From Candidatus Gastranaerophilaceae bacterium (lineage in GTDB: Bacteria; Cyanobacteriota; Vampirovibrionia; Gastranaerophilales; Gastranaerophilaceae), in assembly GCA_045538535.1 (NCBI GenBank), contig JAZSRN010000053.1, forward strand, positions 15,315-79,314: a stretch of 64,000 nt of DNA. The letters are read 5' to 3'. The position numbers were made by a program, and so were the translations under genes. The notes below the pieces were generated by a model that saw nothing but the letters and a program-made list of their open reading frames with translations, made no database searches and had not been told where the DNA came from. How positions within the stretch are numbered: position 1 is the first letter of the stretch; the number at the start of each line of letters is the position of its first letter. Below are positions 3,933 through 57,525 of the stretch, one piece after another.

Positions 3933-4646
3933 ATGGCAAATATTCAAAAACGTATTCTTATTGTTGATGATGATAATGAAATTAGGGATTTATTAGAGTT
4001 CGATATCGCACAAAGCGGCTATTTTGTTGATACTGCAAAGGACGGTTTAGAAGGCTTAAATAAAGCCCTTAACAATACTTATGACTTGATTTTATTAGAT
4101 GTCATGATGCCCAAAATGAACGGTTTTGATGTTGCTAAAAATATTAGACAAGCAAAACTGGCAATTCCCATATTGATGTTAACGGCAAAAGGAACAATTG
4201 ATGATAAAACCGAAGGTTTCGACTCCGGAGTTGATGATTATTTGGTAAAACCCTTCGATATTCAAGAAGTTCTGTTGCGAATAAAAGTATTATTAAGAAG
4301 AAATCAGATTGAAGATAAAAATTCACTTTCCGATGAAGTCTTGCAAGCTGGAGATATACAAATTTTTCCTGAAAGTTTAGAAACTGTGGTGGTAAACAAA
4401 CGAACAAAACTTACCCCAACAGAATTTGAAATTTTATATTGCTTACTACAGCATTTTAACCAACCTGTAACTTTGGCAACACTACTGGATGAAGTTTGGG
4501 GATATGATAGCAACGAAGATGTCCGCATGCTTCGTGTTCACGTCGGAGGCCTTCGTAATAAAATTGAACCCGATCCGAAAAATCCAAAATATTTGCATAC
4601 AGTTACAAATGTTGGTTATAAATTAACACCATTTAGCGGAGAATAG
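3933..4646 (+). CDS. OmpR-family response regulator
   Basis: Receiver domain (ILIVDDD...LILLDVMMPKMNG...LTAKG) plus a winged-helix trans_reg_C tail (LTPTEFEIL...VHVGGLRNKIE). Confidence 0.9.
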   Translation: MANIQKRILIVDDDNEIRDLLEFDIAQSGYFVDTAKDGLEGLNKALNNTYDLILLDVMMPKMNGFDVAKNIRQAKLAIPILMLTAKGTIDDKTEGFDSGVDDYLVKPFDIQEVLLRIKVLLRRNQIEDKNSLSDEVLQAGDIQIFPESLETVVVNKRTKLTPTEFEILYCLLQHFNQPVTLATLLDEVWGYDSNEDVRMLRVHVGGLRNKIEPDPKNPKYLHTVTNVGYKLTPFSGE

Positions 4647-6828: not shown

Positions 6829-7179
6829 ATGATAAAAAGATTTGTTTCACTAATTGTTTTGATTTTAGCGTTTTCTTTTGCATTTGCAGATGCAGAGACT
6901 TTTGAACGCGTAAAAGCTAGACATATATTAGTAAAAACCCAAAAAGAAGCCATCGCTATTAAAAAAGATTTGGACGAGGGCGGAAGCTTTAATTATTATG
7001 CTAAATACCACTCAATATGTCCGTCTGGACAAAATGGTGGGGATTTAGGATTTTTTGGAAAAGGACAAATGGTAAAAGAATTTGAAAACGCAGCCTTTGC
7101 GTTACCTATCGGACAAGTATCGGAGCCAATACACACGCAATTTGGTTGGCATTTGATAGTTGTTGATGACAGAATTTAA
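6829..7179 (+). CDS. Parvulin-type peptidyl-prolyl cis-trans isomerase with signal peptide
   Basis: ARHILV...GGDLGFFGKGQMVKEFENAAF...GWHLI is a PpiC-type rotamase pattern. Hydrophobic N-terminus. Confidence 0.85.
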   Translation: MIKRFVSLIVLILAFSFAFADAETFERVKARHILVKTQKEAIAIKKDLDEGGSFNYYAKYHSICPSGQNGGDLGFFGKGQMVKEFENAAFALPIGQVSEPIHTQFGWHLIVVDDRI

Positions 7180-7207
7180 AAAGGGTTGATAAAAAATCAA
7201 CCCTTTT
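7179..7207. terminator. Bidirectional rho-independent terminator
   Basis: GGGTTGAT-aaaaa-ATCAACCC flanked by an A-run and a T-run, between convergent genes. Confidence 0.85.
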
Positions 7208-7227
7208 ACTTTATCCACAACCGTTAA

Positions 7228-7599
7228 TTATTTTTCTGCATTTTCTTCGTTTTTAAGGTCTGTGCTATCTTGAGCTTTTTGAAGTTTTGCTTGAACTTTT
7301 TGGAGTTTTTTAATCAATTTTTGTTCTTGCTTGCGCACCTTTTTTTCACCTTCCGGAAGATAAAAATCAGCTTGGTCTACAAAATGCATTCTCTCCCAAC
7401 ATCCCGGAACTTGAGATTCCTTTGAACAAATACTGTTGCGCCAAGTTTCACCGGTTTTCTTATCCAACAAGATTGTCAACATATTATCAGCAGTGATAAT
7501 TTTGTATCTGTCCGTTTCATCAAATTTTGGATGTAAAAAATCCGCAACCAATAACACTAACACTATTGCAATAGCAGTATTTAGAATTTTGTCTTTCAT
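7228..7599 (-). CDS. Membrane-anchored hypothetical protein with K/Q-rich coiled tail
   Basis: Single N-terminal TM (AIAIVLVLLVADFL). No recognisable family. Confidence 0.45.
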   Translation of the reverse strand: MKDKILNTAIAIVLVLLVADFLHPKFDETDRYKIITADNMLTILLDKKTGETWRNSICSKESQVPGCWERMHFVDQADFYLPEGEKKVRKQEQKLIKKLQKVQAKLQKAQDSTDLKNEENAEK

Positions 7600-7743
7600 A
7601 ATCCTCTTCTCCTTCTTGGAATATTATAATATATAAATTAAAATTTGTCATCTTTTTACAAATAGCCCAAGTGGGTAATTCCCATTATTTATTTATAGAT
7701 TTATCATATCAACGAAGGCAAAAAATAGGAATAAGTAATATTT

Positions 7744-8412
7744 ATGGAAAACGATAAAATCCAACTTTATATTGTAGAAGACTACATGTTAACAAGGGCA
7801 ACATACAAGCATTTCTTAAGTAAAAAACAAGACATTGAACTTCTCGGAGACTTCGAAAACGCAGAAAACTGTATTGATGCAATGCAAGAAAAAGAAGCCG
7901 ATGTAATTTTGATGGACCTAGGACTTCCAAAAATGAACGGACTGGAAGCAACTAAAATCTTAAAAGAGCGTTATCCAGCCGCAAAAGTTATTATATTAAC
8001 CTCACACGAACAAGAAGAAGAAATTTTAGCATCATTAGCAACCGGTGCCAACGCATACGTTTTGAAAGATATTGATTTCGGCGTTTTATATAACGTCATT
8101 CAATTAGTAAACAACGGGGCAATATGGATTGATCCAAAAATCGCACAAGTTGCACTTTCCGCCTTCCCTAAACCGGTTTCGACAAATTTCAACAACCTTT
8201 ATGACAAAAAAGTTTTAGATACAAATCTTACCAAACGAGAAATTGAAGTTCTGCGTTTAATTGTACAAGGAAAATCAAACACTGAAATCGCGGACGAAAT
8301 CCTTATTAGTCCAAATACAGCAAAAGCCCACGTTTGCAGCATTTTGCAAAAATTATCGGTAACCGATAGAGTTCAAGCTGCGGTTAAAGCTGTTAAACAA
8401 AATTTATTATAA
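7744..8412 (+). CDS. NarL/LuxR-family response regulator
   Basis: Receiver domain (LYIVEDY...ILMDLGLPKMNG) plus a LuxR-type HTH (LTKREIEVLRLIVQGKSNTEIADEILISPNTAKAHV). Confidence 0.9.
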   Translation: MENDKIQLYIVEDYMLTRATYKHFLSKKQDIELLGDFENAENCIDAMQEKEADVILMDLGLPKMNGLEATKILKERYPAAKVIILTSHEQEEEILASLATGANAYVLKDIDFGVLYNVIQLVNNGAIWIDPKIAQVALSAFPKPVSTNFNNLYDKKVLDTNLTKREIEVLRLIVQGKSNTEIADEILISPNTAKAHVCSILQKLSVTDRVQAAVKAVKQNLL

Positions 8413-12766: not shown

Positions 12767-13417
12767 CTAAAATCCAAATGGATAATCGTCCGGAACCTTC
12801 CAACCGTTCGCTTGAATTAAAGCCGCACAACCATGGCGAAACTCAACATCTTGACGACATCCATGATCCGCTTTTTTTATTTTATCTGCACCTAACCCCT
12901 CATAATAAGTCGCAAATTTATATCTATTACCATGAGCAACCATTCTAAAAGTAAAACGTTCAGTTCCATCCTTTGCCATTGCATAATGCTTATTTTCGTT
13001 TAGCAATAGATGGGATTTTGGATAGTAATAAAAATGAATAGAATCTACACCTGTGAAATGATTAAACATTACAAACCCTGAACCATCTGACAAACGAACA
13101 ACTATTCTCTTATTATCAGAGCTAACATATGCATCTTGAACATTAAGTTTGCTTTTTAGATATTTGTTAAACCACTCTAGACACTCCGAACCATTAGCAT
13201 TAGATGAAAAAGTATCCCAATTTTGTACCGGTTCACCATGCTCGTATTCAGCAGCAATTACAGCTTGACTCATTGTTGAGTAGAATTTTTTCAGCTTAGA
13301 TTCTACAACCATTTTTCTATGATTACTCATTACCGTTGGAAGAGTTAACGCTGCAACAACCCCAACAATCCCCAATGTTATCAAAACCTCTGCTAATGTA
13401 AAAGCTAATTTTCGCAT
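12767..13417 (-). CDS. Prepilin-type N-terminal cleavage/methylation domain protein (type IV pilin / pseudopilin-like)
   Basis: MRKLA|FTLAEVLITLGIVGVVAALTLP class III signal. C-terminal C-x9-C-x6-NGWK motif. I prefer the ATG at 13417 (RBS AAGAGGA) over the TTG at 13432. Confidence 0.8.
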   Translation of the reverse strand: MRKLAFTLAEVLITLGIVGVVAALTLPTVMSNHRKMVVESKLKKFYSTMSQAVIAAEYEHGEPVQNWDTFSSNANGSECLEWFNKYLKSKLNVQDAYVSSDNKRIVVRLSDGSGFVMFNHFTGVDSIHFYYYPKSHLLLNENKHYAMAKDGTERFTFRMVAHGNRYKFATYYEGLGADKIKKADHGCRQDVEFRHGCAALIQANGWKVPDDYPFGF

Positions 13418-13550
13418 ATAATCCTCTTTCAAAAACTACAACATAGTAATAAAATTTCTTGTTTACAATACTTATTATAATTGATTTATATACGGTTTAC
13501 AACTATCGGATAGTTTAAAATTTACAAATATATACATTACAATTAACTGC

Positions 13551-14554: not shown

Positions 14555-14619
14555 AAGAAGTGAGCCGAAATAAAGTTAGAAGAAACAAGTTTTGGTAAAC
14601 GAACCAGAAAAGAACTCGT

Positions 14620-14692
14620 GGGGGTTTAGCTCAGCTGGTAGAGCACCTGCTTTGCACGCAGGGGGTCAGGAGTTCGAATCTCCTAACCTCCA
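14620..14692 (+). tRNA. tRNA-Ala (anticodon UGC), CCA not encoded
   Basis: Cloverleaf folded by hand. Acceptor GGGGGTT/AACCTCC carries the G3:U70 alanine identity pair. D arm GCTC..GAGC, anticodon loop TTTGCAC, T arm AGGAG-TTCGAAT-CTCCT. Confidence 0.93.
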
Positions 14693-14699
14693 AAATTTA

Positions 14700-14728
14700 A
14701 AAAGACCTGTATCAAACAGGTCTTTTTT
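14700..14728 (+). terminator. Rho-independent terminator after the tRNA
   Basis: AAAAGACCTGT-atcaa-ACAGGTCTTTTTT. Confidence 0.85.
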
Positions 14729-14839
14729 ATTGTCCCACAAGGGTTTTCAGAGTTCAATGGCTCCAAAATTGATATATCTTTTTTATATACAATAAAATTA
14801 GCCTAAAAGCTAGGTGTAGCAATACTTATAGGAGGTTTT

Positions 14840-15128: not shown

Positions 15129-15160
15129 AAAACCGAATGACATCTGTTATTCGGTTTTTT
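15129..15160 (+). terminator. Rho-independent terminator
   Basis: AAAACCGAAT-loop-ATTCGGTTTTTT. Confidence 0.7.
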
Positions 15161-15161
15161 A

Positions 15162-15398
15162 TTTTTCGTCATTGCGAGAGCGAAAGCCCGAAGCAATCTA
15201 GCCTTTGTCGATTTTAATTGGTCGGAAGTTTGCATTTTCAAACTAGACGAAAACGGTCTTTTCTTGCACTTTTTTGCACACTTTTGCATTAACCTTGCAC
15301 AAAATTGCACCAATTTTGCATACTTTTGCATTCTCTAGTAGGGTTGACTTCAACCAAACACTATTCTTTTTCGGTAGACTGAAGTCTACCCTACTTGC
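15162..15398. repeat. Composite ~235-bp repeat, copy A (GC-rich hairpin + GGTCGGAAGT..GACGAAAACGGTCTTTT core + phased TTGCA array + terminal stem-loop)
   Basis: Aligns end to end with 16424-16655 in direct orientation. Ends in a 16-bp imperfect inverted repeat, AGTAGGGTTGACTTCA (15337-15352) and TGAAGTCTACCCTACT (15380-15395). Confidence 0.85.
15264..15331. repeat. Array of seven TTGCA(C/T) motifs phased at 10-11 bp, copy A
   Basis: Motif starts at 15264, 15274, 15284, 15295, 15305, 15316 and 15326. T/A tracts between motifs share the same phase. Confidence 0.85.
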
Positions 15399-15440
15399 TA
15401 CTGGCTGATAAAGTGGTCATTTTTTTTAGCATTTTGAATT

Positions 15441-16280
15441 TTAGTGGTGACAGCCGTAGCCGAATCTACTGGTATCATACCCTAAGGCTGTTAAGTATGG
15501 GTAATTAAAGTTGTTACCAGGAGATTCAAAAATGCGCTTTACTTCAAGCAGTTTATTATTCTTTTCTGCTAAGGCAAGTATTACTTTACGCATGTGCTTT
15601 TTTACTTCTGGTGAAATTGAGTTAAATTCTTCAATTGTTGTAGTCAAGTCAATTAATCTCTGTACAAGAGAATATCTACTTTGTTTCCAGTATTTTGGTT
15701 TAATATCTAACATTTTTATAACGTATTCTATGTTATTTTCATCGATTTTTAAAATGGCATCTAATAGTTTTTCTGGTTCATATTCCATTTTTACATTAAC
15801 CCCCCAATATATTCCTGGGACTATAGTCGATTTTGTCTCTTTAGCATAGTGATTAATATCATTGGCAATTTTTCTTGCTTCATTACGAACATCTTTTATT
15901 GTGTTTTGTGAGGTTTTATTTGCTCTTTGTCCTTGATAAGATGAAATACTCTGAGAATTTGACTGAATATTTTGTGTTTCCTGAAAAATTGATTTAAATT
16001 CATCTATATTAAGTAGTTGATCATTGGTTTTATCATATAAGGACATTTGAAAATTATCGATACCTAATTCATTAATCTCTTTTTGAGAGATATACATATC
16101 TTTAGGCGCATTATCAAGCATGTTAAACGTCTTATAAATTATGTTATTAGCGGTTTCTGTTCTGTTATTTTGTGCAGTACCAGCCATAGGTGATGCCAAC
16201 GCTGTTGTTAATACCATACATTGTAATGCCTTTTTAGGCGTTGTAAATGAGGTATTTGATTGAGTGGGAGTAATCGTCAT
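15441..16280 (-). CDS. Hypothetical protein (279 aa) with one EF-hand-like loop
   Basis: RBS AAGGAA. DKTNDQLLNIDEF resembles a Ca-binding loop. Otherwise unrecognised. Confidence 0.45.
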   Translation of the reverse strand: MTITPTQSNTSFTTPKKALQCMVLTTALASPMAGTAQNNRTETANNIIYKTFNMLDNAPKDMYISQKEINELGIDNFQMSLYDKTNDQLLNIDEFKSIFQETQNIQSNSQSISSYQGQRANKTSQNTIKDVRNEARKIANDINHYAKETKSTIVPGIYWGVNVKMEYEPEKLLDAILKIDENNIEYVIKMLDIKPKYWKQSRYSLVQRLIDLTTTIEEFNSISPEVKKHMRKVILALAEKNNKLLEVKRIFESPGNNFNYPYLTALGYDTSRFGYGCHH

Positions 16281-16423
16281 ATAAATTCCTTTCTTATCTT
16301 TAATACTTTGATTGCAACAAAATTAAAACCTGTAAAAAAAAAATTTGCTATTAATTCAAGAATGAGCTTGTAGAAAAATTTTCCTAAATAGTTCAAATTG
16401 ATTGTCAAAACATATAGAAAGTA

Positions 16424-16655
16424 TTTTTCGTCATTGCGAGGGCAAAAGCCCGAAGCAATCTAGTTCTTACCAACTTTAAACGGCCGGAAATTTACCAATC
16501 CAAACTGGACGAAAACGGTCTTTTCTTGCACTTTTTTTCACTTTTTTTCACACTTTTGCACTAACCTTGCACAAAATTGCACTGTTTTTGCACTTAAAAA
16601 ATTGTTGGGTTTTACCCAACCTACCCACTATTTTTTCGGTAGACTGAAGTTTCCC
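16424..16655. repeat. Composite ~235-bp repeat, copy B
   Basis: Direct repeat of 15162-15398. Its right end supplies the last codons and stop of ORF 16628-17071 and a hairpin, GTTGGGT-ttt-ACCCAAC. Confidence 0.85.
16526..16593. repeat. Array of seven TTGCAC/TTTCAC motifs phased at 10-11 bp, copy B
   Basis: Motif starts at 16526, 16536, 16546, 16556, 16567, 16577 and 16588. Confidence 0.85.
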
Positions 16656-17071
16656 ATACATGCTTTTATAGATTCAAAGAATTCTTCATCAGACATCGGC
16701 TTAAATCTAGACTTAATAACTCCAGTACTTTCATTCAATGTAATTGATTTATTAGGAACAAAACCATTCATTAATACAATTTCAGATTTTGCTTTAATAG
16801 GTTGTTCAAATTTAGGGAGGGCTTCAGCTATTGTAGATAATCCACCATATTTAAAAGGATTGGTAAACATATTCAAGAAACAAGTTTTTTTACCTTTATA
16901 TTTTGCACCCATTGAAAGCATTACACTATCTTGTGTTAAAGCTGTATTTGGTAAAGTTTTATTTACTAATGTTGTAGCTTGTAGCAATTCCCTTATTCCA
17001 TTTTTTGTTGGGGTATTGGTTACTAAATTACGGCATTGAACTTTTGACACACAATCTACAAAATTTACCAT
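16628..17071 (-). CDS. Hypothetical protein (147 aa)
   Basis: Strong RBS AAGGAG 7 nt upstream of the ATG. Preferred over the overlapping plus-strand ORF 16602-17039, which starts inside the repeat. Confidence 0.5.
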   Translation of the reverse strand: MVNFVDCVSKVQCRNLVTNTPTKNGIRELLQATTLVNKTLPNTALTQDSVMLSMGAKYKGKKTCFLNMFTNPFKYGGLSTIAEALPKFEQPIKAKSEIVLMNGFVPNKSITLNESTGVIKSRFKPMSDEEFFESIKACMGNFSLPKK

Positions 17072-17217
17072 TTTAAAACTCCTTTATAATTATTTAACTA
17101 CACCTAAAAACATTAACGTCAATGAATATTTAAAATTGACTAAATATTACAAAATCCTTTCTATATACTTTTTTATATTTATCATAAACCTTCTAAAAAT
17201 ATTTTTTGCTAGTTAAC

Positions 17218-17276
17218 ATAAAAATTATCAAACCAACTGTTCTTTTTTCTCAAACCTAGTGTCAAAATACAATTGT
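17218..17276 (-). promoter_or_regulatory. Shared promoter box U, copy 1 (gene strand TTGACA..TTGAGA-N18-GATAAT)
   Basis: About 47 of 58 positions are identical to 18372-18429 by hand alignment. GATAAT lies at 17224-17229 on the minus strand. Confidence 0.5.
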
Positions 17277-17280
17277 CCAG

Positions 17281-17530
17281 TTTGGTCGGAAGTAAAAAGT
17301 AAAACTGTCATGCTGAACTTGTTTCAGCATCTTGCCACTTAGGCGTGTTCACTACATTCTGGTGAGACCCTGAAATGAATTCAGACTGACAAAATGGTCG
17401 GAAGTCTATAAATCCAAGCTGGACCAAAACGGACTTTTGATGGACTTTGTTTTTCCATTTTTATACACCCTCACCCGAGCTTTGGGCACCCTCTCCTACA
17501 AGGGGCGAGGGTAATAAAAGTCCTATTTGA
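17281..17530. repeat. Mosaic of GC-rich hairpin modules, block C
   Basis: GGTCGGAAGT occurs at 17284 and 17396. The core CTGGACCAAAACGGACTTTT (17419-17438) is shared with blocks A and B. Hairpins are ATGCTGAA/TTCAGCAT (17310-17330) and ACCCTC/GAGGGT (17488-17512). Confidence 0.75.
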
Positions 17531-17559
17531 GAATTTTGAAGGAGTAAATAAAGTCGGGT

Positions 17560-18312
17560 TTAACCTTTTCTTATTTTTTCCATTTTTTCAATCAAGGTTC
17601 TTTCAATAATTTCATACTTTTCTTCAAAAGCACATTTTTTATTAATATTCACTTTAGAACCATATTTCATAGATTCATTGAACGCTAATGCTTCGTTAAT
17701 AATGGCATATCTAAAAAACTGCAAGGCATTTACTTGTTTTTCTTCCGGCATTGTTGCTAAAAACTTATTCAAACGATTTTCAAACCTTTTTTGCCAATTA
17801 AAAAGTTTATCTAATATTGAAATGCTACTATAAATATTTTTTTCAAAAAAGTTCGCAATAGGCTTATTAATAGAATTTACTCTTGCATTTATTTTTGGAT
17901 TTAAAAGACTTACAAATAAATGAAAAGTTTCATGCATAAGGAATTCACTATCGTATTTCTTAATTTTGTATTTATGATAACTTGTTGCACCGTCTTTGCT
18001 AGCTTTTACACCAAGATATAAATTATTTTTAAATCTATGAAAATAACCAAGTGTTTGTGAAGTCCACATATTAACAGGACGAACATCTAATTTAAAATTT
18101 TTTGGTATAAAGTTTTTTGAAAGAACGTATTTCATTTCCTCTATTGTCATAAACCCTTTTTTCATTTTTTCATTTGCTAATTGATAAAATTCAGCATTAA
18201 GTTCTTGGGCTTTTACAAGTCCAGATGTAACAGGGCCTTTAGGACCTACTATATTACGAACAATTTGAGATTTATTGGGGATAGTTTTTATCATGCTAAA
18301 CCTAAAACTCAT
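17560..18312 (-). CDS. Hypothetical protein (250 aa) with HExxH motif
   Basis: FLMHETFHLFV is a zincin-like HExxH. No signal peptide. The start codon is uncertain because no clear RBS is present. Confidence 0.45.
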   Translation of the reverse strand: MSFRFSMIKTIPNKSQIVRNIVGPKGPVTSGLVKAQELNAEFYQLANEKMKKGFMTIEEMKYVLSKNFIPKNFKLDVRPVNMWTSQTLGYFHRFKNNLYLGVKASKDGATSYHKYKIKKYDSEFLMHETFHLFVSLLNPKINARVNSINKPIANFFEKNIYSSISILDKLFNWQKRFENRLNKFLATMPEEKQVNALQFFRYAIINEALAFNESMKYGSKVNINKKCAFEEKYEIIERTLIEKMEKIRKG

Positions 18313-18371
18313 AAATTTTAAATTTTGACTAAATATTTACGATATTAAGTTTGTAAGTTGATTGAAACGCA

Positions 18372-18429
18372 ACAAAAATTATCAAGCTCACTGTTCTTTC
18401 TTCTCGAATCAAGTGTCAAAACACAGTGT
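18372..18429 (-). promoter_or_regulatory. Shared promoter box U, copy 2
   Basis: Aligned to 17218-17276. GATAAT lies at 18378-18383 on the minus strand. Confidence 0.5.
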
Positions 18430-18522
18430 ATCAGAAATTTTGACATAAAGTATCGCAAGTTTGACATATTAATCGGAAGTTTGTCGAATGTATTTTATAA
18501 TCCGGTATTTTAAAATCCTTAA

Positions 18523-18867
18523 ATGCAAAGAATTGTACGAAATACCTTGTTAAATTACATACCTAACAATTTCACTATAGAAAAAGAGATTAACACAGCA
18601 AGAGTTTATGAGCTTAATAATAAACCTATCAAAAATCACGATATAATTTACTTATGCGAAAGAGAAATTAGAGCAAAGGACAATTTTGCCCTACAATTTG
18701 CGATAGAAAAAAGCAAGGAGTCTGTAGGTTGGGTGAAACCCAACAAAATTTATCTACAAGTTGTCCAAAGAGATTATTTCGTTTTTTCTTCTAATTTATT
18801 TTTCATTTTTGCCGCCAAAGGAGTTGATACGGCAGGAGCTATTACTCGTTTTGCAATTATTGATTGA
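18523..18867 (+). pseudogene. Truncated duplicate of the photolyase 5' end (66 codons), then read-through into unrelated sequence
   Basis: 18511-18720 matches 20661-20870 with 7 mismatches. Homology stops abruptly at 18720. The remaining frame is antisense to ORF 18774-19430. Confidence 0.8.
18724..18746. repeat. Hairpin element GTAGGTTGGGTGAAACCCAACAA, an inverted copy of 16602-16624
   Basis: Its reverse complement matches 16602-16624 at 22 of 23 positions. It starts 3 nt after the photolyase-duplication breakpoint. Confidence 0.8.
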
Positions 18868-19430
18868 AGTACAATTGCTGTAAATGTACTAAGGCCATTT
18901 ATTACCATATTATAACGAGGCGTTTTTTCTAGAGGTTTTAATATTTTTTCAAATCCTTTTGTAATCTTATTCACAGACATAGGGCCTAATATAAAAGATA
19001 AAACTACCGTTGTTAGACATGCCATAACATCATATGAGCCCATAAATAATCGCTTTTCACGTGAATAATCAGGATTAGTAAAGGATTGAGATGTACTTAC
19101 AATCCCCGTCATTAAATCTTTCAATATATTACCAATAAGCACTGCATTAATTATCGTTTTTCCTAAATCGTTTGTTTTATGACCACCGACTTTGTTAAAT
19201 AATTTTGCAAATTTTTCAAAAATTTTTGTTATAATTTCATCTGTTTTTTTATGGAATTTGCTTGTTGATAGTTTTTTATCAAGCTCATTTTGAGCAAGCG
19301 TACATGTTTGTGCCGCTAATTCTTTTATTTGTTTGTAGTCTTCTAGAGAAGGTGTTTTACCTAAGCGATTTATCATTCTATTGACATTTTTTAATGATTC
19401 ATAAGAATTTATTGGAGGTATTTTATTCAT
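18774..19430 (-). CDS. Hypothetical membrane protein (218 aa)
   Basis: RBS GGAGGG. Hydrophobic segments in the C-terminal half. Overlaps the upstream ORF by 8 nt. Confidence 0.5.
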   Translation of the reverse strand: MNKIPPINSYESLKNVNRMINRLGKTPSLEDYKQIKELAAQTCTLAQNELDKKLSTSKFHKKTDEIITKIFEKFAKLFNKVGGHKTNDLGKTIINAVLIGNILKDLMTGIVSTSQSFTNPDYSREKRLFMGSYDVMACLTTVVLSFILGPMSVNKITKGFEKILKPLEKTPRYNMVINGLSTFTAIVLQSIIAKRVIAPAVSTPLAAKMKNKLEEKTK

Positions 19431-20526
19431 TTTTACCCTCCGTATTTTTGTTTAAATTTAACAATTTTACAGCTTTACCATGAATTACATTCAGAAATAT
19501 TCTGCTAAGAATAACTACCGTAACAATATTCATTGCTATTTTAGGTTTTATTTTCGCAAGTTCATAGTTCCCTACAGCATCTGCAATAATCTTAAATTTT
19601 TTTCTAACATAGTCTATATTTTCCGGTTTTATAATTCCTTGCTTAATTTGTCTTTCAAAATTCCGAACATAGCTTTCATAGGTTTCAGGTTCAAAAGCAT
19701 CGATAGTTATTAATTTGCGAGCATCATTTTCTGAAAGTATATCTTTTAACCCGCCTTTTTCTTGTGCCATATTCGTTAATTCGATAAATAATCGCTTCGC
19801 TTCATTAGGGTTATATTTAATATTTTCAAATTGATTTACCAAAATCTTTCCATGCTCTTTAATTTGCTCTCTAATTTCTTTTGTTTCAAATATATTATTT
19901 GAAAGAATCTTCGGCATATATACATTAAAAAGCTTATCAAAAGCTCCTTGTAAAGTAAAAGTAGCAAGAACCGACAACGGTTCTCTTATTATTACGTATG
20001 CTTTTTCATCCTTAGAGGATTCTTTTTTCCCTATAATGCTTGTTAATATTACAAGAGGCATAATAAAAAGTTTTCCGACAGAATTGATAAGGTTATTATA
20101 AAGTTCATCTCCCATTTTGGCTTTTGAATTTTGAAAACTCTGTCCAAGATTATATAACGTTTTGGTAAAAAATTTCTTAATTTTTCCTTGAGATTCAAGG
20201 AGTTTATCTATATTAGTTTCATCTTTAATCTTTTGGATATTTTCCAACTTTGAATACTGTTTTTCAATCCGTTTTGCTTTATTATAAATATATTCAGGAC
20301 TATGTGTTCTTAATATTCCAGTTTTATACGCAGCAAAACCAACGGCTGTCAACCATAACGATGTAGCCGTCACATCCGCAATTTTTTTTACATTATTATG
20401 TCCAGATTTTTGGTATTTGATTTCGTTTTTAGGTTCAATAAACCAATCGCGATGTTCAATATGTTTAACTAAACTTATATCATACATATACATAACAACG
20501 TTCATAAAAATAAATTTTGCTACCAA
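19423..20526 (-). CDS. Hypothetical membrane protein (up to 367 aa, start uncertain)
   Basis: Long K/I/N-rich ORF with TM segments near both ends. The TTG start at 20526 sits 2 nt from a TATATA box, so a downstream ATG (for example 20505) is more likely. Confidence 0.45.
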   Translation of the reverse strand: MVAKFIFMNVVMYMYDISLVKHIEHRDWFIEPKNEIKYQKSGHNNVKKIADVTATSLWLTAVGFAAYKTGILRTHSPEYIYNKAKRIEKQYSKLENIQKIKDETNIDKLLESQGKIKKFFTKTLYNLGQSFQNSKAKMGDELYNNLINSVGKLFIMPLVILTSIIGKKESSKDEKAYVIIREPLSVLATFTLQGAFDKLFNVYMPKILSNNIFETKEIREQIKEHGKILVNQFENIKYNPNEAKRLFIELTNMAQEKGGLKDILSENDARKLITIDAFEPETYESYVRNFERQIKQGIIKPENIDYVRKKFKIIADAVGNYELAKIKPKIAMNIVTVVILSRIFLNVIHGKAVKLLNLNKNTEGKNE

Positions 20527-20672
20527 CTATATAAAGTTAAACAAATTTATACGAGCATTTTTGCAACCGACACACTACAATACAGATAAAAAACTCAACA
20601 ATCTAACACTTTGACCTAAACATTAGATATTTAGTGAATATGTTTTTTTATTCTGCATTTTATAATCCTTAA

Positions 20673-21950
20673 ATGCAAAGAATTGTACGAAACACCTTAT
20701 TAAATTACATACCTAACAATTTCACTATAGAAAAAGAGATTAACACAGCAAGAGTTTATGAGTTTAACAATAAACCTATCAAAAATCACGATATAATTTA
20801 CTTATGCGAAAGAGAAATTAGAGCAAAGGACAATTTCGCACTACAATTTGCGATAGAAAAAAGCAAGGAGTTAGACTTGCCATTAAAAATAATTCATCCA
20901 AAGATTAATTATGAACACGCATCAAAACAAAGATTTATTGACAATCAAATAGAACAAGCAAAAACTCAATTTTGGGATATAGGTTTAGATTTTGAAATAA
21001 TCAAAAATACATCGCTTGAAATAATAAAAAATACAAATCCGGCTATTTTAATTGTTGATTTTAATCCGATTTTAAAAAGAGATTACTTAAAAAACACTAA
21101 TTGCAAGATTTATGAGATTGATGGCCATAATATAATTCCTACAAGATTTGTTTCAGACAAACAAGAATATAGCGCAGCGACTCTAAGAACAAAAATTTAT
21201 CATAAAATATATCCATTCTTAACCGAGTTTGACAATTTAATAACAGAAAAAGTAGAAGCAGATTGTGTTTTAGAAACTTTCATTAAAAACAAATTACCGT
21301 ATTATGCAGAATATAAAAATGACCCGTCAAAAAATGTTATATCAAGTTTATCAAAATATTTAAATCTAGGTTTTATTTCAAGTCAAAGAGTTGCACTTGA
21401 AGTTATAAAATCCGGAGCAAATAATATAAATAAAGAAACATTTTTAGAAGAATTAATTATTAGAAAAGAATTGGCAGATAATTTTTGCCTATATTCAAAA
21501 AGTTTTAAAGATTTTTCTTCAATTCCAAACTGGGCAAAAATCTCTCTTAATAATCACCGATTAGATATTCGCCCGTACCTATATTTACTCCAAGATTTAG
21601 AAAAGGCAAAAACACATGACCAATTATGGAATGCTGCGCAAATCCAATTGATAAAAGAAGGAACAATTCACGGATATTTAAGAATGTACTGGGCAAAGAA
21701 AATCTTGGAATGGAGCAGTTCACCAGAAGACGCTCTAAAAATAGCGATTTACTTAAATGATAAATATGCTTATGATGCACCATCTGCGAATGGTTATGTC
21801 GGAGTTTTATGGGCAATTGGAGGTTTACACGATAGAGCATTTGCGGATTATCCAATAACTGGCAAAATACGCCGAATGAGTTATAACTCTACAAAAAGAA
21901 AATATGATTTGTCCACTTATATAAACCACAACAATCGCAATTTATTTTAA
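20673..21950 (+). CDS. phr: Deoxyribodipyrimidine photolyase, class II-like
   Basis: C-terminal FAD-binding pattern IHGYLRMYWAKKILEW ... NGYVGVLWAIGGLHDRAF in a 425-aa protein. Confidence 0.8.
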   Translation: MQRIVRNTLLNYIPNNFTIEKEINTARVYEFNNKPIKNHDIIYLCEREIRAKDNFALQFAIEKSKELDLPLKIIHPKINYEHASKQRFIDNQIEQAKTQFWDIGLDFEIIKNTSLEIIKNTNPAILIVDFNPILKRDYLKNTNCKIYEIDGHNIIPTRFVSDKQEYSAATLRTKIYHKIYPFLTEFDNLITEKVEADCVLETFIKNKLPYYAEYKNDPSKNVISSLSKYLNLGFISSQRVALEVIKSGANNINKETFLEELIIRKELADNFCLYSKSFKDFSSIPNWAKISLNNHRLDIRPYLYLLQDLEKAKTHDQLWNAAQIQLIKEGTIHGYLRMYWAKKILEWSSSPEDALKIAIYLNDKYAYDAPSANGYVGVLWAIGGLHDRAFADYPITGKIRRMSYNSTKRKYDLSTYINHNNRNLF

Positions 21951-45138: not shown

Positions 45139-45474
45139 TTATAAGTTCAAACCTGGAATATTTATACCACCAGTTACAGCTTTCATTTTTGTTTCCATTT
45201 CTTTTGTAGCTTTATCACTGGCTTGTTTTATAGCAGAAGAAATGATATCTTCAAGCATTTCAATAGACTCAGCATCAACTGCAGAAGGATTTTCCGGATT
45301 GATTGCTTCAGCGCTCAATTTGATAGCCTTAAATTTACCCTGACCGTCACAAGTAACTTTTACTGCACCACCAGCTGATTCACCAACAATTTCAGTTTCA
45401 GCTAGTTGTTTTTGAGTATCTTTCAATCTTGCTTGCAATGTTTGAGCTTGCTTCATCATCTGCATAATATTCAT
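45139..45474 (-). CDS. ybaB: YbaB/EbfC nucleoid-associated protein
   Basis: NIMQMMKQAQTLQ...GGAVKVT.DG pattern with the classic ybaB-recR pairing. Confidence 0.9.
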   Translation of the reverse strand: MNIMQMMKQAQTLQARLKDTQKQLAETEIVGESAGGAVKVTCDGQGKFKAIKLSAEAINPENPSAVDAESIEMLEDIISSAIKQASDKATKEMETKMKAVTGGINIPGLNL

Positions 45475-53774: not shown

Positions 53775-54470
53775 TTAATAATCCATCTTCCATCCATTTT
53801 GAGCAAGGTAATTATAACAACCTTGACCTTCTAATTGCCCTTCTTTGCAATCTTCAGGATTACCAGAATCAACTAATATGCCATCATTTCTTAAATCAAA
53901 TAGAAACACATCATACCCATATTTATTTGGCGCCTTAAAACCATTTACATCCATTTCAATAACCCCTAAAGAATTTCCAACGCCATTACCTATCATCATA
54001 CTCATCATAGCATTATCATTTAACACAAGCATAGTTGCCCCACGCATATTATTAGTGCCAGTATTTGATAAATTAGTAAATTTATAGTCGTTAGGTGCAA
54101 TTGCATAATCTATAATATTAAAATATTTTTTCAAATCATTTTTAAAGAAATTTTGACACAATTGACTAGCTTGTTCTAAATTGGAATTTGAACAGTCAAC
54201 ACTATCCGTAGAAAGTTGAACAAATGGTTCCGTATCTTCCAAGCTATCAACACCTCCAGCATCTGCACGCATTTTTTGGAATCCTTGTTCAAGAGTTGAT
54301 ACTGTTTTTCTTAATTGAGCAACCCAAACTTGCTTTTTGTGACTAGCAATCAAATTTGGCATTGTTAATGCTGCAACAATACCAATAATACCTAACGTAA
54401 TTAACACTTCTGCTAACGTAAACCCAAGCCGAATATTAACATTAGTACTCTTTTTGCAAAATAATTCCAT
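53775..54470 (-). CDS. Prepilin-type N-terminal cleavage/methylation domain protein
   Basis: RLG|FTLAEVLITLGIIGIVAALTMP. C-terminal C-x9-C-x6-NGWK motif. RBS AAAGGAA. Confidence 0.8.
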   Translation of the reverse strand: MELFCKKSTNVNIRLGFTLAEVLITLGIIGIVAALTMPNLIASHKKQVWVAQLRKTVSTLEQGFQKMRADAGGVDSLEDTEPFVQLSTDSVDCSNSNLEQASQLCQNFFKNDLKKYFNIIDYAIAPNDYKFTNLSNTGTNNMRGATMLVLNDNAMMSMMIGNGVGNSLGVIEMDVNGFKAPNKYGYDVFLFDLRNDGILVDSGNPEDCKEGQLEGQGCYNYLAQNGWKMDY

Positions 54471-54958: not shown

Positions 54959-56119
54959 ATGACTAAAAAATATTTTTTACCGCAAAAAGCTGAATTAAAA
55001 CAATTAAAAATTACAGATATTAGCTTGCCAAAACCCGATTTGAAAAACATTTACGAATCAAAAACCGTAGCTATCGGCAAGTGGCTTATTGCTTGGATTG
55101 ATAACGATTTAAAGTCTAACAAAATCAAACATAACGAACTTTTGCCGTCAAAATCTGATTTTGCATATTACCTAGGCGTAAGTATCGGAACTATACAAAA
55201 CGCTTTTAGATACATTGAAGATTTAGGCTGGATAGAATCAAAACAGTGTATCGGGACTTTAGTCAAAGATAAAAACTCTTCGACATCAAACATCCGAAAA
55301 TTAACTTCAAAACGCGAAAAAGCAATCGAAGCCATTAAAAAATACATTTGGGAAAACAATTACAAATGCGGACAAATTTTGCCATCATCACGTTTAATCG
55401 CCGACAGAATCAACTCTTCTCCAAATACCACTCGTCTTGCCCTTGAATATTTGGGAACACAAGGAGTCTTGAAACATAAATTCAAAAAAAGTAATGAAGC
55501 CGGATGGGTTGTACAAAAATCAGATTTTGAATTCCAAAATTATTCTTCGGATAATATCTCCGGCACAACACTTGTTGAAAAGGTGGAAGAAGAACTTAAA
55601 GAATTTATTTCTCAAAACCTAAAAATCGGAGACAAACTTCCAGCGCATTCAGAGTTGTCGAAAATACTAAAAGTTAGCATCAAAACCGTTCACGATGCGC
55701 TTTCTCATTTGATTGATAACGGAATTTTGCTTGCTCGTCGCGGACGTTATGGCACAACAGTTATCAAAATGCCTTACTCCAACAATATTGACGTCAAAAA
55801 AGAAACCTCGATATTTGCACCGGCAAAAGATACGGCATTTTACTATTATGAAAAAACTCAAAATCACATAAAAAAAATGATTGCTGAAAAATATCAAATC
55901 GGCGAAAAATTACCGTCAATAGTTGAACTTTCAAAAGAATTAGACATAAGCCCAAATACTATCCGAAAAGCATTTGGTAACCTCGCAAAAGAAGGTTATT
56001 TGGCATTTTCAAGAGGGCGCTACGGCGGAACTTTTGTCCTCGACATTCCGGAGATGGAAGAACACGCATTCAAATGGTTAGCGGTAAATCCTAAATTCGC
56101 GGAATTGTATAAAAATTAG
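54959..56119 (+). CDS. Protein composed of four tandem GntR-type winged-helix domains
   Basis: Four repeats of the pattern LPS..(E)L...L.VS..T...A...L...G.L....G.G..V, around aa 36-103, 118-187, 205-270 and 294-361. Confidence 0.7.
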   Translation: MTKKYFLPQKAELKQLKITDISLPKPDLKNIYESKTVAIGKWLIAWIDNDLKSNKIKHNELLPSKSDFAYYLGVSIGTIQNAFRYIEDLGWIESKQCIGTLVKDKNSSTSNIRKLTSKREKAIEAIKKYIWENNYKCGQILPSSRLIADRINSSPNTTRLALEYLGTQGVLKHKFKKSNEAGWVVQKSDFEFQNYSSDNISGTTLVEKVEEELKEFISQNLKIGDKLPAHSELSKILKVSIKTVHDALSHLIDNGILLARRGRYGTTVIKMPYSNNIDVKKETSIFAPAKDTAFYYYEKTQNHIKKMIAEKYQIGEKLPSIVELSKELDISPNTIRKAFGNLAKEGYLAFSRGRYGGTFVLDIPEMEEHAFKWLAVNPKFAELYKN

Positions 56120-56195: not shown

Positions 56196-56867
56196 ATGAG
56201 AAAGATATTTTCTAACAAAACACAACGCCAAGCGTTCACACTTGCAGAAGTTTTAATAACATTGGGTATTATCGGCATTGTGTCTGCAATTACAATGCCA
56301 ACATTGATTAGCAACCATAAACAACAGACTTATATGACAACCTTGCATAAAGTCTACAACGAAACACATCAAGCATTAACCCAATTAAAAACTGACAAAA
56401 ACGTGGAAACTTTGACTGAAGCTGGCTTAAATTCTAATGCAGCATTAGCTGACTGGGCAAAAAAATATTTCAAAGTTCAAACTGATTGCGGTACAAGTGC
56501 TACACCGTGTTTTGCTCCTTCATACAAGCATTTAAAAGGTGCAACCGTCAGCGACATATCATTTACAAGCGGTGCTAGTTGTTTCCAACTTCCAAGCGGT
56601 GCATCCATAAGACCATATTACAAGAGTGAATACGAAAAGAAAATTAATCTTTTTGTCGACACAAACGGTGCAAAAGGCCCAAATATTTTGGGTAGAGATG
56701 CATATTTATTAGGAATATACAATAACGGAACAATTGATGACTATGATGGAGGTTCTGTACCATTGACTCCGGCAAGACGAACTGCGCTATATAACAATAA
56801 ATGCAATTCCACTACTGGCAGTGTTTGGGGTTGTTTTGGCAACGTATTAAACAACGGCTGGAAATAG
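56196..56867 (+). CDS. Prepilin-type N-terminal cleavage/methylation domain protein
   Basis: RQA|FTLAEVLITLGIIGIVSAITMP. The C-terminus is C-x9-C-x6-NGWK. Confidence 0.8.
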   Translation: MRKIFSNKTQRQAFTLAEVLITLGIIGIVSAITMPTLISNHKQQTYMTTLHKVYNETHQALTQLKTDKNVETLTEAGLNSNAALADWAKKYFKVQTDCGTSATPCFAPSYKHLKGATVSDISFTSGASCFQLPSGASIRPYYKSEYEKKINLFVDTNGAKGPNILGRDAYLLGIYNNGTIDDYDGGSVPLTPARRTALYNNKCNSTTGSVWGCFGNVLNNGWK

Positions 56868-56868
56868 A

Positions 56869-57525
56869 TTATACATTACAAATTTTTGAATATTCACAAG
56901 AGGCACATTTATCAGATTTTTTACAATCAAAAGATGTGTCTTTTGTTATTTCAGCACAAACGTTTTCTATTATATTTTTATATTGCGCTTTCAAATTGTC
57001 ATCAAATAAAACTTCCACATTACGATTATTTTTCAAATCAATATAAACAAACTGTATCTTACGAGTATCTCCTTTAGAGCGCAAAAACTCATCTAATATT
57101 AACAAATACGAAATCGTTTGAAAATCATACTGTGGATTTTTTGGAACTGAACCGGTCTTGTAGTCCAAAATATAATATCCGGACTCATCTTTCATTAAGG
57201 CATCAAGTCTTCCGCTCAACCAATACCCGCTAATATTTGCAGACAAATTATATTCTGAATTTACATAACACTTTTTAAAATAACTATTTTCACAAAGTTT
57301 TTGGAAAATTTCGGTTTCTTCAAAGTTTAAAGCCTCACCTAATTTCGTAATATCTTGTCCGCTCAAGTAATAATGTGCAAGTGCATGGATTTTTTTACCT
57401 TTTACAAAATAAGATGAAGGCATAGGGATATTGATTTTTTCAAGATACTTAAGCCTATATTTATAAGGGCATTCACTATATGTTTTTAGCATATTCGGGT
57501 AAAATATAATCGAATTTTTAAGCAT
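56869..57525 (-). CDS. PD-(D/E)XK nuclease with Cas4/AddB-type four-cysteine Fe-S cluster motif
   Basis: One N-terminal Cys (YSECPYKY), RLDAL...ILDYKTG catalytic core, QxxxY (FQTISY) and C-terminal CKKSDKCASC. ATG 57525 has RBS GGAGG and overlaps the helicase stop by 8 nt. Confidence 0.75.
   Translation of the reverse strand: MLKNSIIFYPNMLKTYSECPYKYRLKYLEKINIPMPSSYFVKGKKIHALAHYYLSGQDITKLGEALNFEETEIFQKLCENSYFKKCYVNSEYNLSANISGYWLSGRLDALMKDESGYYILDYKTGSVPKNPQYDFQTISYLLILDEFLRSKGDTRKIQFVYIDLKNNRNVEVLFDDNLKAQYKNIIENVCAEITKDTSFDCKKSDKCASCEYSKICNV

Follow-up and report, generated by a model that had tools for sequence, protein, structure and literature searches.

Two groups of bacterial transposons offer the closest described counterparts of the locus analyzed here. 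In the IS607 family, dimers of the IS1535 transposase TnpA nucleate on four helically phased 9-bp direct repeats located 20–60 bp from the tip of the left end (LE), and the protein then spreads as a cooperative filament and captures the other end, the right end (RE), which has fewer motifs (PMC6188088). In Tn7-like elements the TnsB sites form arrays, and insertion takes place downstream of tRNAs (PMC8649781). Here, we analyzed a stretch of 64,000 nucleotides from a Candidatus Gastranaerophilaceae bacterium (assembly GCA_045538535.1, contig JAZSRN010000053.1, positions 15,315 to 79,314), referred to as the window, in which a sequence-only reading had singled out two arrays, A and B, each composed of seven TTGCA-type hexamers repeated once per helical turn. 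We find that these arrays are a helically phased subterminal block in the LE of small, non-autonomous gene cassettes of Candidatus Gastranaerophilales. Our preferred reading, to which we assign a probability of roughly 45%, is that this block would bend the end and/or bind a recombinase or accessory protein acting in trans.

The hexamers and their spacing are exactly as had been described from the letters. On direct reading, the TTGCA(C/T) hexamers of array A start at 15264, 15274, 15284, 15295, 15305, 15316 and 15326 (spacings of 10, 10, 11, 10, 11 and 10 bp), while the TTGCAC or TTTCAC hexamers of array B start at 16526, 16536, 16546, 16556, 16567, 16577 and 16588 (spacings of 10–11 bp), and array B has one TTTTTTTCAC unit more than array A. 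Chains of TTGCAY at 10/11-bp spacing reached seven units in the window; in shuffled controls (n = 300) the maximum was one in 285 shuffles, two in 15 and never more than two, and every other hexamer of the window formed chains of at most three. The pair TTGCAY-N5-TTGCAY occurred 4 times against an expectation of 0.09. Fourier analysis of AA/TT dinucleotides gave a peak at 10.5 bp in both arrays, with a power of 3.35 in array A and 5.23 in array B compared to shuffle maxima of 2.1 and 1.5, respectively. The 10–11 bp spacing and the phased T/A tracts between the hexamers place all sites on one face of the helix, as had been proposed. The phase also continues upstream of the hexamers first noted in array A, through TTGCAT (15230), CTAGAC (15243) and ACGGTC (15253).

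The intrinsic bend that had also been proposed holds as a prediction. Using the Bolshoy-Trifonov wedge model, we calculated predicted curvature for 100-bp segments across the 64 kb (mean 34 degrees, standard deviation 18), among which array B ranked first and array A fourth (Table 1). All TTGCAC-type arrays fell between the 99.3rd and 100th percentile of predicted bend. The view that the segment is neither coding nor a terminator likewise stands: a coding repeat was rejected, as the period is not divisible by 3 and the open reading frame (ORF) crossing array A is broken in array B, and no RNA or terminator fold is conserved across eight copies (consensus of −8 kcal/mol, no covariation). Two further candidates were rejected on sequence, namely a sigma-54 promoter (TTGCAC-N5-TTGCA has no GG for a −24 element) and a DnaA-box cluster (just 1–2 units match TTWTNCACA).

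Both arrays belong to a repeat of ~240 bp (15160–15395 and 16422–16660, 83% identical, same orientation) with a fixed order of modules: a hairpin (CGTCATTGCGAG..CGAAGCAATC), a core (GGTCGGAAGT), the phased block, and one or two units composed of GTAGG and a hairpin, which resemble repetitive extragenic palindromic (REP) sequences. A third relative at 17272–17470 has an identical core and a TGGAC-type block. These repeats lie in three cassettes that stand head to tail (15160–18425) shortly after a tRNA-Ala gene, with LEs that span 15160–15395 (A), 16415–16660 (B) and 17272–17470 (C). Cassettes consist of an LE, 1–2 GTAGG+hairpin units, a cargo gene (occasionally two), in most cases an orphan, and an RE of ~55 bp, and in the window they are roughly 1 kb long. 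A 52-nt repeat, D5 (17220–17271 and 18374–18425), is the RE of cassettes B and C, and LE C also holds a duplicated core (17396–17405) next to its phased TGGAC-type block, which stands in place of TTGCAC.

Comparison with loci fetched outside the window (L001–L018) defined the ends of the cassettes. Complete LEs were found in L014, L015 and L006. The LE tip is TGTATTTTATTGTCCGTTTTGGTCGGAAGT (consensus TGTATTTTATTGTCC(G/A)(T/G)TTTGGTCGGAAGT), followed by 4–12 short motifs ~10.5 bp apart, and the array block falls within about 130 bp of the tip. The RE follows the consensus ..AAAAATTATCAAAnnnnnCTGTTCTTTCTTCTCAAACCnAGTGTyAAAATACA; it has no TTGCAC motif, just a loosely phased TTGAnA, and its opposite strand bears a sigma-70-like match (TTGAGA-18-GATAAT) directed toward the cargo gene, although promoter-like matches in this AT-rich region are no commoner than in shuffles. 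Left flanks of seven LE tips were unrelated to one another, as were the right flanks of nine REs. The LE and RE tips match in inverted orientation at 9/9 terminal positions (TGTATTTTA) and 18/30 overall, giving a 9-bp terminal inverted repeat, and the termini read 5'-TGT...ACA-3' (LE tip TGTATTTTA, RE tip TAAAATACA). One cassette in L014 (LE 5696 ... RE 4841) has ACCACCGT at both flanks, and an uninterrupted GATTCTCACCACCGTGGTGG adjoining tRNA-Tyr on the same contig represents the empty site. This duplication of 8 bp (7 if the terminal A is shared), the sole target duplication seen, reads together with the empty site as the footprint of a transposition.

In most LEs, hairpin or cloverleaf modules of 69–112 bp lie between two copies of (T)GGTCGGAAGT, and because of these modules the distance from tip to array is variable. 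One such module of ~100 nt comprises a closing stem and three hairpins (GTCATSCTGAA..TTCAGSAT / CTTRCC..GGTAAG / CTGAA..TTCAG..TGAC). It was observed at window 17294–17395, L001 6090–6190, L005 1–160, L006 4890–5045 and 7560–7655, L014 4440–4550 and L015 1–50, always flanked by two (T)GGTCGGAAGT, as if by a site-specific insertion with a 10–11 bp duplication; it had no Rfam match.

Pattern scans recovered further copies, as did one search that used a spurious ORF as query. They came from the metagenome-assembled genome 'Cyanobacteria bacterium SIG28' (L001) and from JGI, ENA and Logan metagenome contigs (L002, L003, L005, L006, L014, L015), and the assemblies with copies are SUTU01, JAEIGA01, ERZ27256852, ERZ28436053 and IMG 3300011008. 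An IMG/VR contig (L018) was found with one RE pattern, while the other three pattern scans of viral-contig collections gave 0 matches. Most copies lie at contig ends, as is typical of multicopy repeats. Wherever the flank was visible, an RNA gene lay 5' of the stack, and it differed at each locus: tRNA-Ala in the window, tRNA-Gln in L006, tRNA-Tyr in L014 and transfer-messenger RNA (tmRNA) in L018; the L015 stack follows a tRNA 3' end, read by eye. Cargo proteins mostly had no family match, with exceptions that include a Fic protein, an ADP-ribosylglycohydrolase and a DUF805 protein. PADLOC returned nothing for the cargo proteins, and the 279-aa cargo protein of cassette A had no homologue but itself. 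No transposase or integrase domain was found in window ORFs of at least 100 aa or in the scanned cargo ORFs of L001, L002, L003, L005, L006, L014 and L018. As a separate observation, the cassettes of L018 (11411–12300) follow the tmRNA gene on a contig that holds a phage terminase gene (6883–8184) and is otherwise chromosome-like.

We then compared the phased block among LEs. The eight LEs of the TTGCAC type are almost invariant over 44 nt in the centre of the array, spacers included, while the flanks differ by whole modules and the number of TTGCAC units ranges from 4 to 7 in whole 10–11 bp steps. Other LEs with an identical tip and core carry TGGAC (window C, L001, L014) or ATGTCC/AAGTCC (L001, L018), and an LE of L018 carries three TTTACTCA units 10–11 bp apart, for which periodicity is less clear. 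Five of these variant blocks were modelled and had predicted bends at the 90th to 99th percentile. The sequence-only reading had suggested asking whether homologous repeats keep the period rather than the exact motif, and the answer is moderately positive. The period is better conserved than the motif across LEs, staying at roughly 10–11 bp in copies with other motifs, but only some of these exceed their controls (AA/TT peaks at 9.5–11.5 bp, of which two exceed every shuffle and the rest lie within the shuffle range).

This variation bears on whether the block is a purely architectural or neutral by-product, generated by slippage duplication of a 10–11 bp unit in an AT-rich end and acting at most as a bend or a region for nucleoid proteins (H-NS-like silencing), with no dedicated partner. 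Gain and loss of whole units at the array edges, a motif that changes between LEs while the period stays near 10–11 bp, the strong predicted curvature and the variable distance from the tip would all be expected of such a by-product. Plain duplication of one unit should yield a constant length, whereas the mixture of 10- and 11-bp units keeps the mean near 10.3–10.5 bp; the spacers differ among units yet are invariant among copies; and phased blocks in at least four motif versions occupy one place in the LE, which argues for a selected layout. We consider this explanation unlikely.

Having defined the cassette ends, we compared them with described mobile elements. By analogy, the closest documented mechanism would be that of IS1535 and the IS607 family: there as here, short direct repeats in helical phase with A/T-rich spacers lie tens of base pairs inside the LE, and more of them are found on the LE than on the RE. 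The cassettes have 7–10 array units compared to 4–5, and no serine recombinase/resolvase domain was found in the scanned loci. They also have a 9-bp inverted tip and one 8-bp duplication, whereas IS607 has neither and ends in GG, and these inverted tips and the duplication argue against membership of IS607.

Similarly, the 5'-TGT...ACA-3' termini, multiple subterminal repeats and asymmetric ends are shared with Tn7-like, Tn402/Tn5053, IS21 and Mu-type ends, and insertion in one orientation downstream of tRNA genes with side-by-side accumulation is shared with Tn7-like elements. However, TnsB and TniA sites are 15–22 bp long and inverted on both ends, whereas TTGCAC units measure 10–11 bp, occur on the LE only and give way to other motifs among LEs that share one tip. 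The duplication is 8 bp rather than the 5 bp of Tn7, and no tnsABC, tniABQ or istAB genes were found in any locus. The LE-only motif, the unit length and the 8-bp duplication argue against Tn7, and we therefore place the cassettes in neither family, since membership of each fails on the features examined. LE positions 11–20 (TGTCCGTTTT) resemble what we take to be the Tn402 inverted repeat (TGTCGTTTT), a likeness that we do not count as evidence.

In overall form, the cassettes are most readily likened to mobile insertion cassettes (MICs) and to miniature inverted-repeat transposable elements with passenger genes, which are short, have inverted transposon-like ends, lack a transposase and are presumably mobilised in trans. 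Sharp inverted ends, a passenger gene, the lack of a transposase and a target duplication (seen once) were all found here. Known MICs use the ends of an identified insertion sequence (e.g. IS231), whereas no parent element was identified for the cassettes, which moreover are stacked at tRNA/tmRNA genes and carry a long phased repeat block. An integron attC site, an imperfect palindrome of 57–141 bp with RYYYAAC ... GTTRRRY boxes and intI close by, was rejected, as the element measures ~240 bp and is not a single palindrome, no integrase was found, and its GTTGGGT..ACCCAAC segments stand in reversed order as one of several hairpin types. The GTAGG+hairpin units that flank the arrays resemble REP sequences and bacterial interspersed mosaic elements in having GTAG followed by a 7–8 bp hairpin in either orientation, and the region is likewise a mosaic of short reusable modules; REP sequences are dispersed between genes genome-wide, and within the 64 kb these units occur solely in the cassette island, the phased array is itself not a REP, and no REP-associated tyrosine transposase was found.

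Taken with these comparisons, our preferred reading suggests the following mechanism, in which we infer protein binding, a role in mobility and the kind of enzyme involved. With its T/A tracts and hexamers aligned along one side of the helix, the block would have a static bend of about 100 degrees and present a row of equivalent major-groove sites close to the tip. A trans-acting transposase or recombinase, or an accessory DNA-binding protein, may then coat or wrap the block, for which TnsB, TniA and IstA, which coat arrayed end repeats, offer a possible parallel, and the coated block would mark the LE and help to pair both ends. The block might act as a static bend, as a row of binding sites on one face, or as both. 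In this respect the earlier suggestion of a cooperative protein-binding array remains reasonable as a class.

Several observations weigh against this reading. No mobilising enzyme was found in the loci scanned, so protein binding is something we infer. TTGCAC is absent from the RE, whereas Tn7, Mu and Tn402 bear one type of site at both of their ends. Motifs differ among LEs that share a tip, such that a single tip-recognising protein would not read all arrays sequence-specifically, and this variety of motifs behind one tip favours a structural role or separate accessory proteins. The distance between tip and array is not fixed, owing to the inserted modules in most copies, and a target duplication was observed just once. 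The LE tip is missing from window copy A and largely from copy B, both of which may be relics that no longer move. Recent spread, as opposed to selection, may account for how nearly identical the array is among copies. Lastly, a triplicated tRNA-Tyr 3' segment in L014 and a 262-bp duplication in the window, both described below, indicate that homologous or site-specific recombination also shaped the stacks.

The arrangement of the L014 stack bears on one alternative, in which the hexamers are arm-type sites for a tyrosine integrase and/or a Xis/Cox-type directionality factor, the cassettes are integrase-less integrative modules, and successive integration next to tRNA genes made RE-LE junctions that resemble attP. 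Lambda P' arm sites and Xis/Cox filaments typically involve direct repeats in phase, and the cassettes do stack head to tail at tRNA or tmRNA genes. Furthermore, L014 (7010–4640, minus strand) contains three copies of the final 10 nt of tRNA-Tyr together with ~57 nt downstream of it, each copy being followed by a cassette LE joined at a different offset. The same feature also counts against the idea, since the LE tip joins one flanking sequence at three offsets and leaves no single crossover point. Identical LEs and REs occur at five tRNA/tmRNA genes with no core common to element and target, the 8-bp duplication is specific to one insertion, and no integrase was found in any cassette locus; a single integrase fragment (L010/L011) lies in loci without LE or RE motifs. 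We therefore regard integrase arm sites as quite unlikely. Two neighbouring observations may be added: a 65-nt segment after the native tRNA-Tyr 3' copy in L014 is also repeated, and in L010/L011 (1–8600), from related Gastranaerophilales genomes, the photolyase-like gene adjoins a defence island (type I restriction-modification, AbiH, Abi_C) and a truncated tyrosine integrase, with cassette ends absent.

We also considered whether the arrays serve as an operator for a regulator of the neighbouring cassette genes, either an OmpR/PhoB-type response regulator (3933–4646) or a GntR-like protein with four winged helix-turn-helix domains (54959–56119), both of which are encoded in the window. A hexamer with a 4–5 bp A/T-rich spacer repeated at 10–11 bp is the layout of pho boxes and OmpR sites, and the arrays fit that box geometry; more generally they share with OmpR/PhoB operators, ParR/parC and Xis/Cox sites a short motif and A/T spacer every 10–11 bp, placement on one face, and bending. 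Those sites stand at fixed positions beside a promoter, par operon or att core, with OmpR/PhoB boxes overlapping or adjoining the −35 region, and no such context was found for the arrays. Their position and orientation relative to a promoter are not consistent, as the array lies 3' of the cargo gene in the window and upstream of the cargo in L005 and L006, one array type accompanies unrelated cargo genes, and the promoter-like matches are at shuffle level. An operator role is thus distinctly improbable. Independently of this question, the 386-aa protein at 54959–56119 has an unusual architecture, with four tandem GntR-type winged-helix domains and no effector domain. The sequence-only reading had speculatively paired this protein with the arrays, a pairing that the context does not favour.

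The sequence-only reading had noted a likeness to iterons or centromere-like arrays. On this view the arrays would be iterons of a replication origin, or a centromere of the ParR, ribbon-helix-helix or TubR type, within a plasmid-like or satellite element that has integrated. It is compatible with seven to ten short direct repeats that share one face of the helix and are predicted to bend strongly; parC of R1 has 11-bp repeats, and the origins of the satellites SaPI and P4 have short repeats. The genomic context gives these analogies no support. Neither the window nor the related loci yielded a rep, primase-helicase, parM/parR, parA/B or tubZ/R gene, and the window is an ordinary chromosome segment. 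Centromeres of these types stand immediately upstream of a parMR, parAB or tubRZ operon, but partition genes adjoin no copy. Plasmid iterons are usually 17–22 bp long and lie beside an AT-rich unwinding region and the cognate rep gene, whereas the units here measure 10–11 bp. A single orphan gene in a cassette of ~1 kb cannot make up a replicon, two or three arrays stand in tandem within 2.3 kb, and a search of plasmid and phage collections with a 281-bp element as query returned nothing relevant. Rather than isolated iterons or centromeres, the arrays are internal parts of repeated, transposon-like cassette ends, and we consider a replication or partition site very unlikely.

Finally, we weighed whether the LE is a non-coding RNA gene (a guide/bridge-type RNA, or a protein sponge bearing UUGCAC repeats) transcribed from a promoter-like TGTTAAAAT at the RE tip across RE-LE junctions. 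The RE tip does contain an extended −10-like TGTyAAAAT directed toward the next LE, two segments in the 5' portion of the LE, GTCCAGTTTGG and CCAAACTGGAC, complement each other and show some changes that G-U pairing on the plus strand would tolerate, and whole-element folds reached z-scores of −2.6 to −3.8. On the other hand, the consensus fold over the array is negligible and without covariation, copies A and B fold differently with the array mostly unpaired, the commonest 5' arm (GTCCGTTTTGG) mismatches its proposed partner, and copies A and B of the window lack the upstream promoter-like element. Rfam (15), at gathering and permissive thresholds, identified only tRNA, tmRNA and noise, including weak Clostridiales-1 matches well below threshold. 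These results make an RNA gene highly improbable; a retron or bridge-RNA-like RNA was separately rejected, with no reverse transcriptase or recombinase found and no covariation.

Returning to the reading of the block as a bent and/or protein-bound transposon end, one tip and core are joined to at least four short motifs, each repeated roughly once per helical turn. It is possible, though we hold it as doubtful, that the cassettes form an undescribed family in Gastranaerophilales, which are non-photosynthetic Cyanobacteria, the cassettes lacking a recombinase, carrying single genes, homing behind any tRNA/tmRNA gene and bearing an exchangeable 'phase block' in the LE. Literature searches on Melainabacteria repeats and on these sequence strings found no description. 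Should matching DNA-binding proteins read the blocks, or the bend alone matter, this modular end architecture and targeting mode would be undescribed for bacterial transposons. Gut Melainabacteria are uncultured and their mobile elements essentially undescribed; if mobile, the cassettes would show how genes that are orphan or defence-like (Fic, ADP-ribosylglycohydrolase and many unknowns) come to be shuffled into safe sites behind tRNA genes when no recombinase is resident. The block also offers a simple way to ask what defines a transposon end, a protein filament or an intrinsic bend, and the conserved LE tip TGTATTTTATTGTCCRKTTTGGTCGGAAGT and RE CTGTTCTTTCTTCTCAAAYCnAnTGTyAAAATACA provide a search key for the missing enzyme in complete genomes.

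Table 1 Coordinates of the cassette island in the window
Feature	Position	Strand	Remark
tRNA-Ala gene	14619–14693	+	5' of the cassette stack
Probable LE-tip remnant TCTTTTTTATTGTCC	14721–14735	+	right after the tRNA-Ala terminator; 3 mismatches to tip consensus; weak
LE of cassette A	15160–15229	+	tip missing; hairpin module CGTCATTGCGAG..CGAAGCAATC, core GGTCGGAAGT (15220–15229)
Three in-phase units 5' of array A	15230–15263	+	TTGCAT 15230, CTAGAC 15243, ACGGTC 15253; aligned across 8 copies
Array A	15264–15331	+	7 TTGCA(C/T) hexamers; predicted bend 105 degrees
Two REP-like GTAGG+hairpin units closing LE A	15338–15394		15338 on +, 15394 on −
Cargo ORF of cassette A	15441–16280	−	279 aa, orphan
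Degenerate RE of cassette A	16371–16414	+	..TTCAAATTGATTGTCAAAACATA; degenerate relative to RE consensus
LE of cassette B	16415–16491	+	first-core remnant TAGAAAGT, hairpin module, second core GGCCGGAAAT (16482–16491)
In-phase units 5' of array B	16505–16525	+	CTGGAC 16505, ACGGTC 16515
Array B	16526–16593	+	7 TTGCAC or TTTCAC hexamers; predicted bend 115 degrees
REP-like GTAGG+hairpin closing LE B	16604–16655		GTTGGGTTTTACCCAAC, terminator-like on −; then degenerate second hairpin
Cargo ORF of cassette B	16628–17071	−	147 aa, no family match
RE of cassette B	17220–17271	+	AAAAATTATCAAACCAACTGTTCTTTTTTCTCAAACCTAGTGTCAAAATACA; sigma-70-like match on − strand, toward cargo gene
LE of cassette C	17272–17470	+	abuts RE B; ATTGTCCAGTTTGGTCGGAAGT; cloverleaf-like insert 17294–17395
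Cargo ORF of cassette C	17560–18312	−	250 aa, no family match
RE of cassette C	18374–18425	+	followed by ancestral upstream region of photolyase-like gene

A 65-aa ORF lies between the LE-tip remnant and cassette A. Downstream of the stack, 18426–18520 corresponds to sequence also present in L007 and L013, namely the ancestral upstream region of the photolyase-like gene; loci around photolyase homologues in about 90 kb of related genomes contained no cassette, and synteny was not conserved. A 262-bp direct repeat (18460–18721 and 20610–20871, 90% identical) is a duplication of the N-terminus of the photolyase-like gene together with the region upstream of it, and flanks a 1.9-kb insert with two orphan genes (18774–19430 and 19423–20526, both on the minus strand), and its first copy stops exactly at a GTAGG+hairpin unit (18724–18744).

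Units composed of GTAGG and a 7–8 bp hairpin were found at window positions 15338, 15394, 16624 and 18724 with several stem sequences, and L001 holds ten in 6 kb. The hairpin unit CGTCATTGCGAG...CGAAGCAATCC of the cassette ends (window 15167–15200 and 16429–16462) is 85–92% identical over 35–40 nt to unannotated intergenic inverted repeats (L016 1500–1580, L017 1500–1590) on plasmids of Methylocystis, Methylosinus, Novosphingobium and Rhodoferax. By these matches, it looks like a REP-like unit that different phyla share.

Beyond the island, Pfam annotation of essentially all ORFs of at least 100 aa describes an ordinary Gram-negative chromosome segment, and the closest named proteins come from metagenome-assembled genomes of Candidatus Gastranaerophilales / Gastranaerophilaceae. 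YbaB is encoded at 45139–45474. N-terminal prepilin-type methylation motifs occur in three proteins (12767–13432, 53775–54470 and 56196–56867), one of which has DUF6613, and these suggest type IV pilus or competence pseudopilins in this organism. A PD-(D/E)XK/Cas4-like nuclease (56869–57546) overlaps the end of a 1306-aa UvrD-type helicase (57518–61438), and the pair looks like an AddAB/AdnAB-like system.

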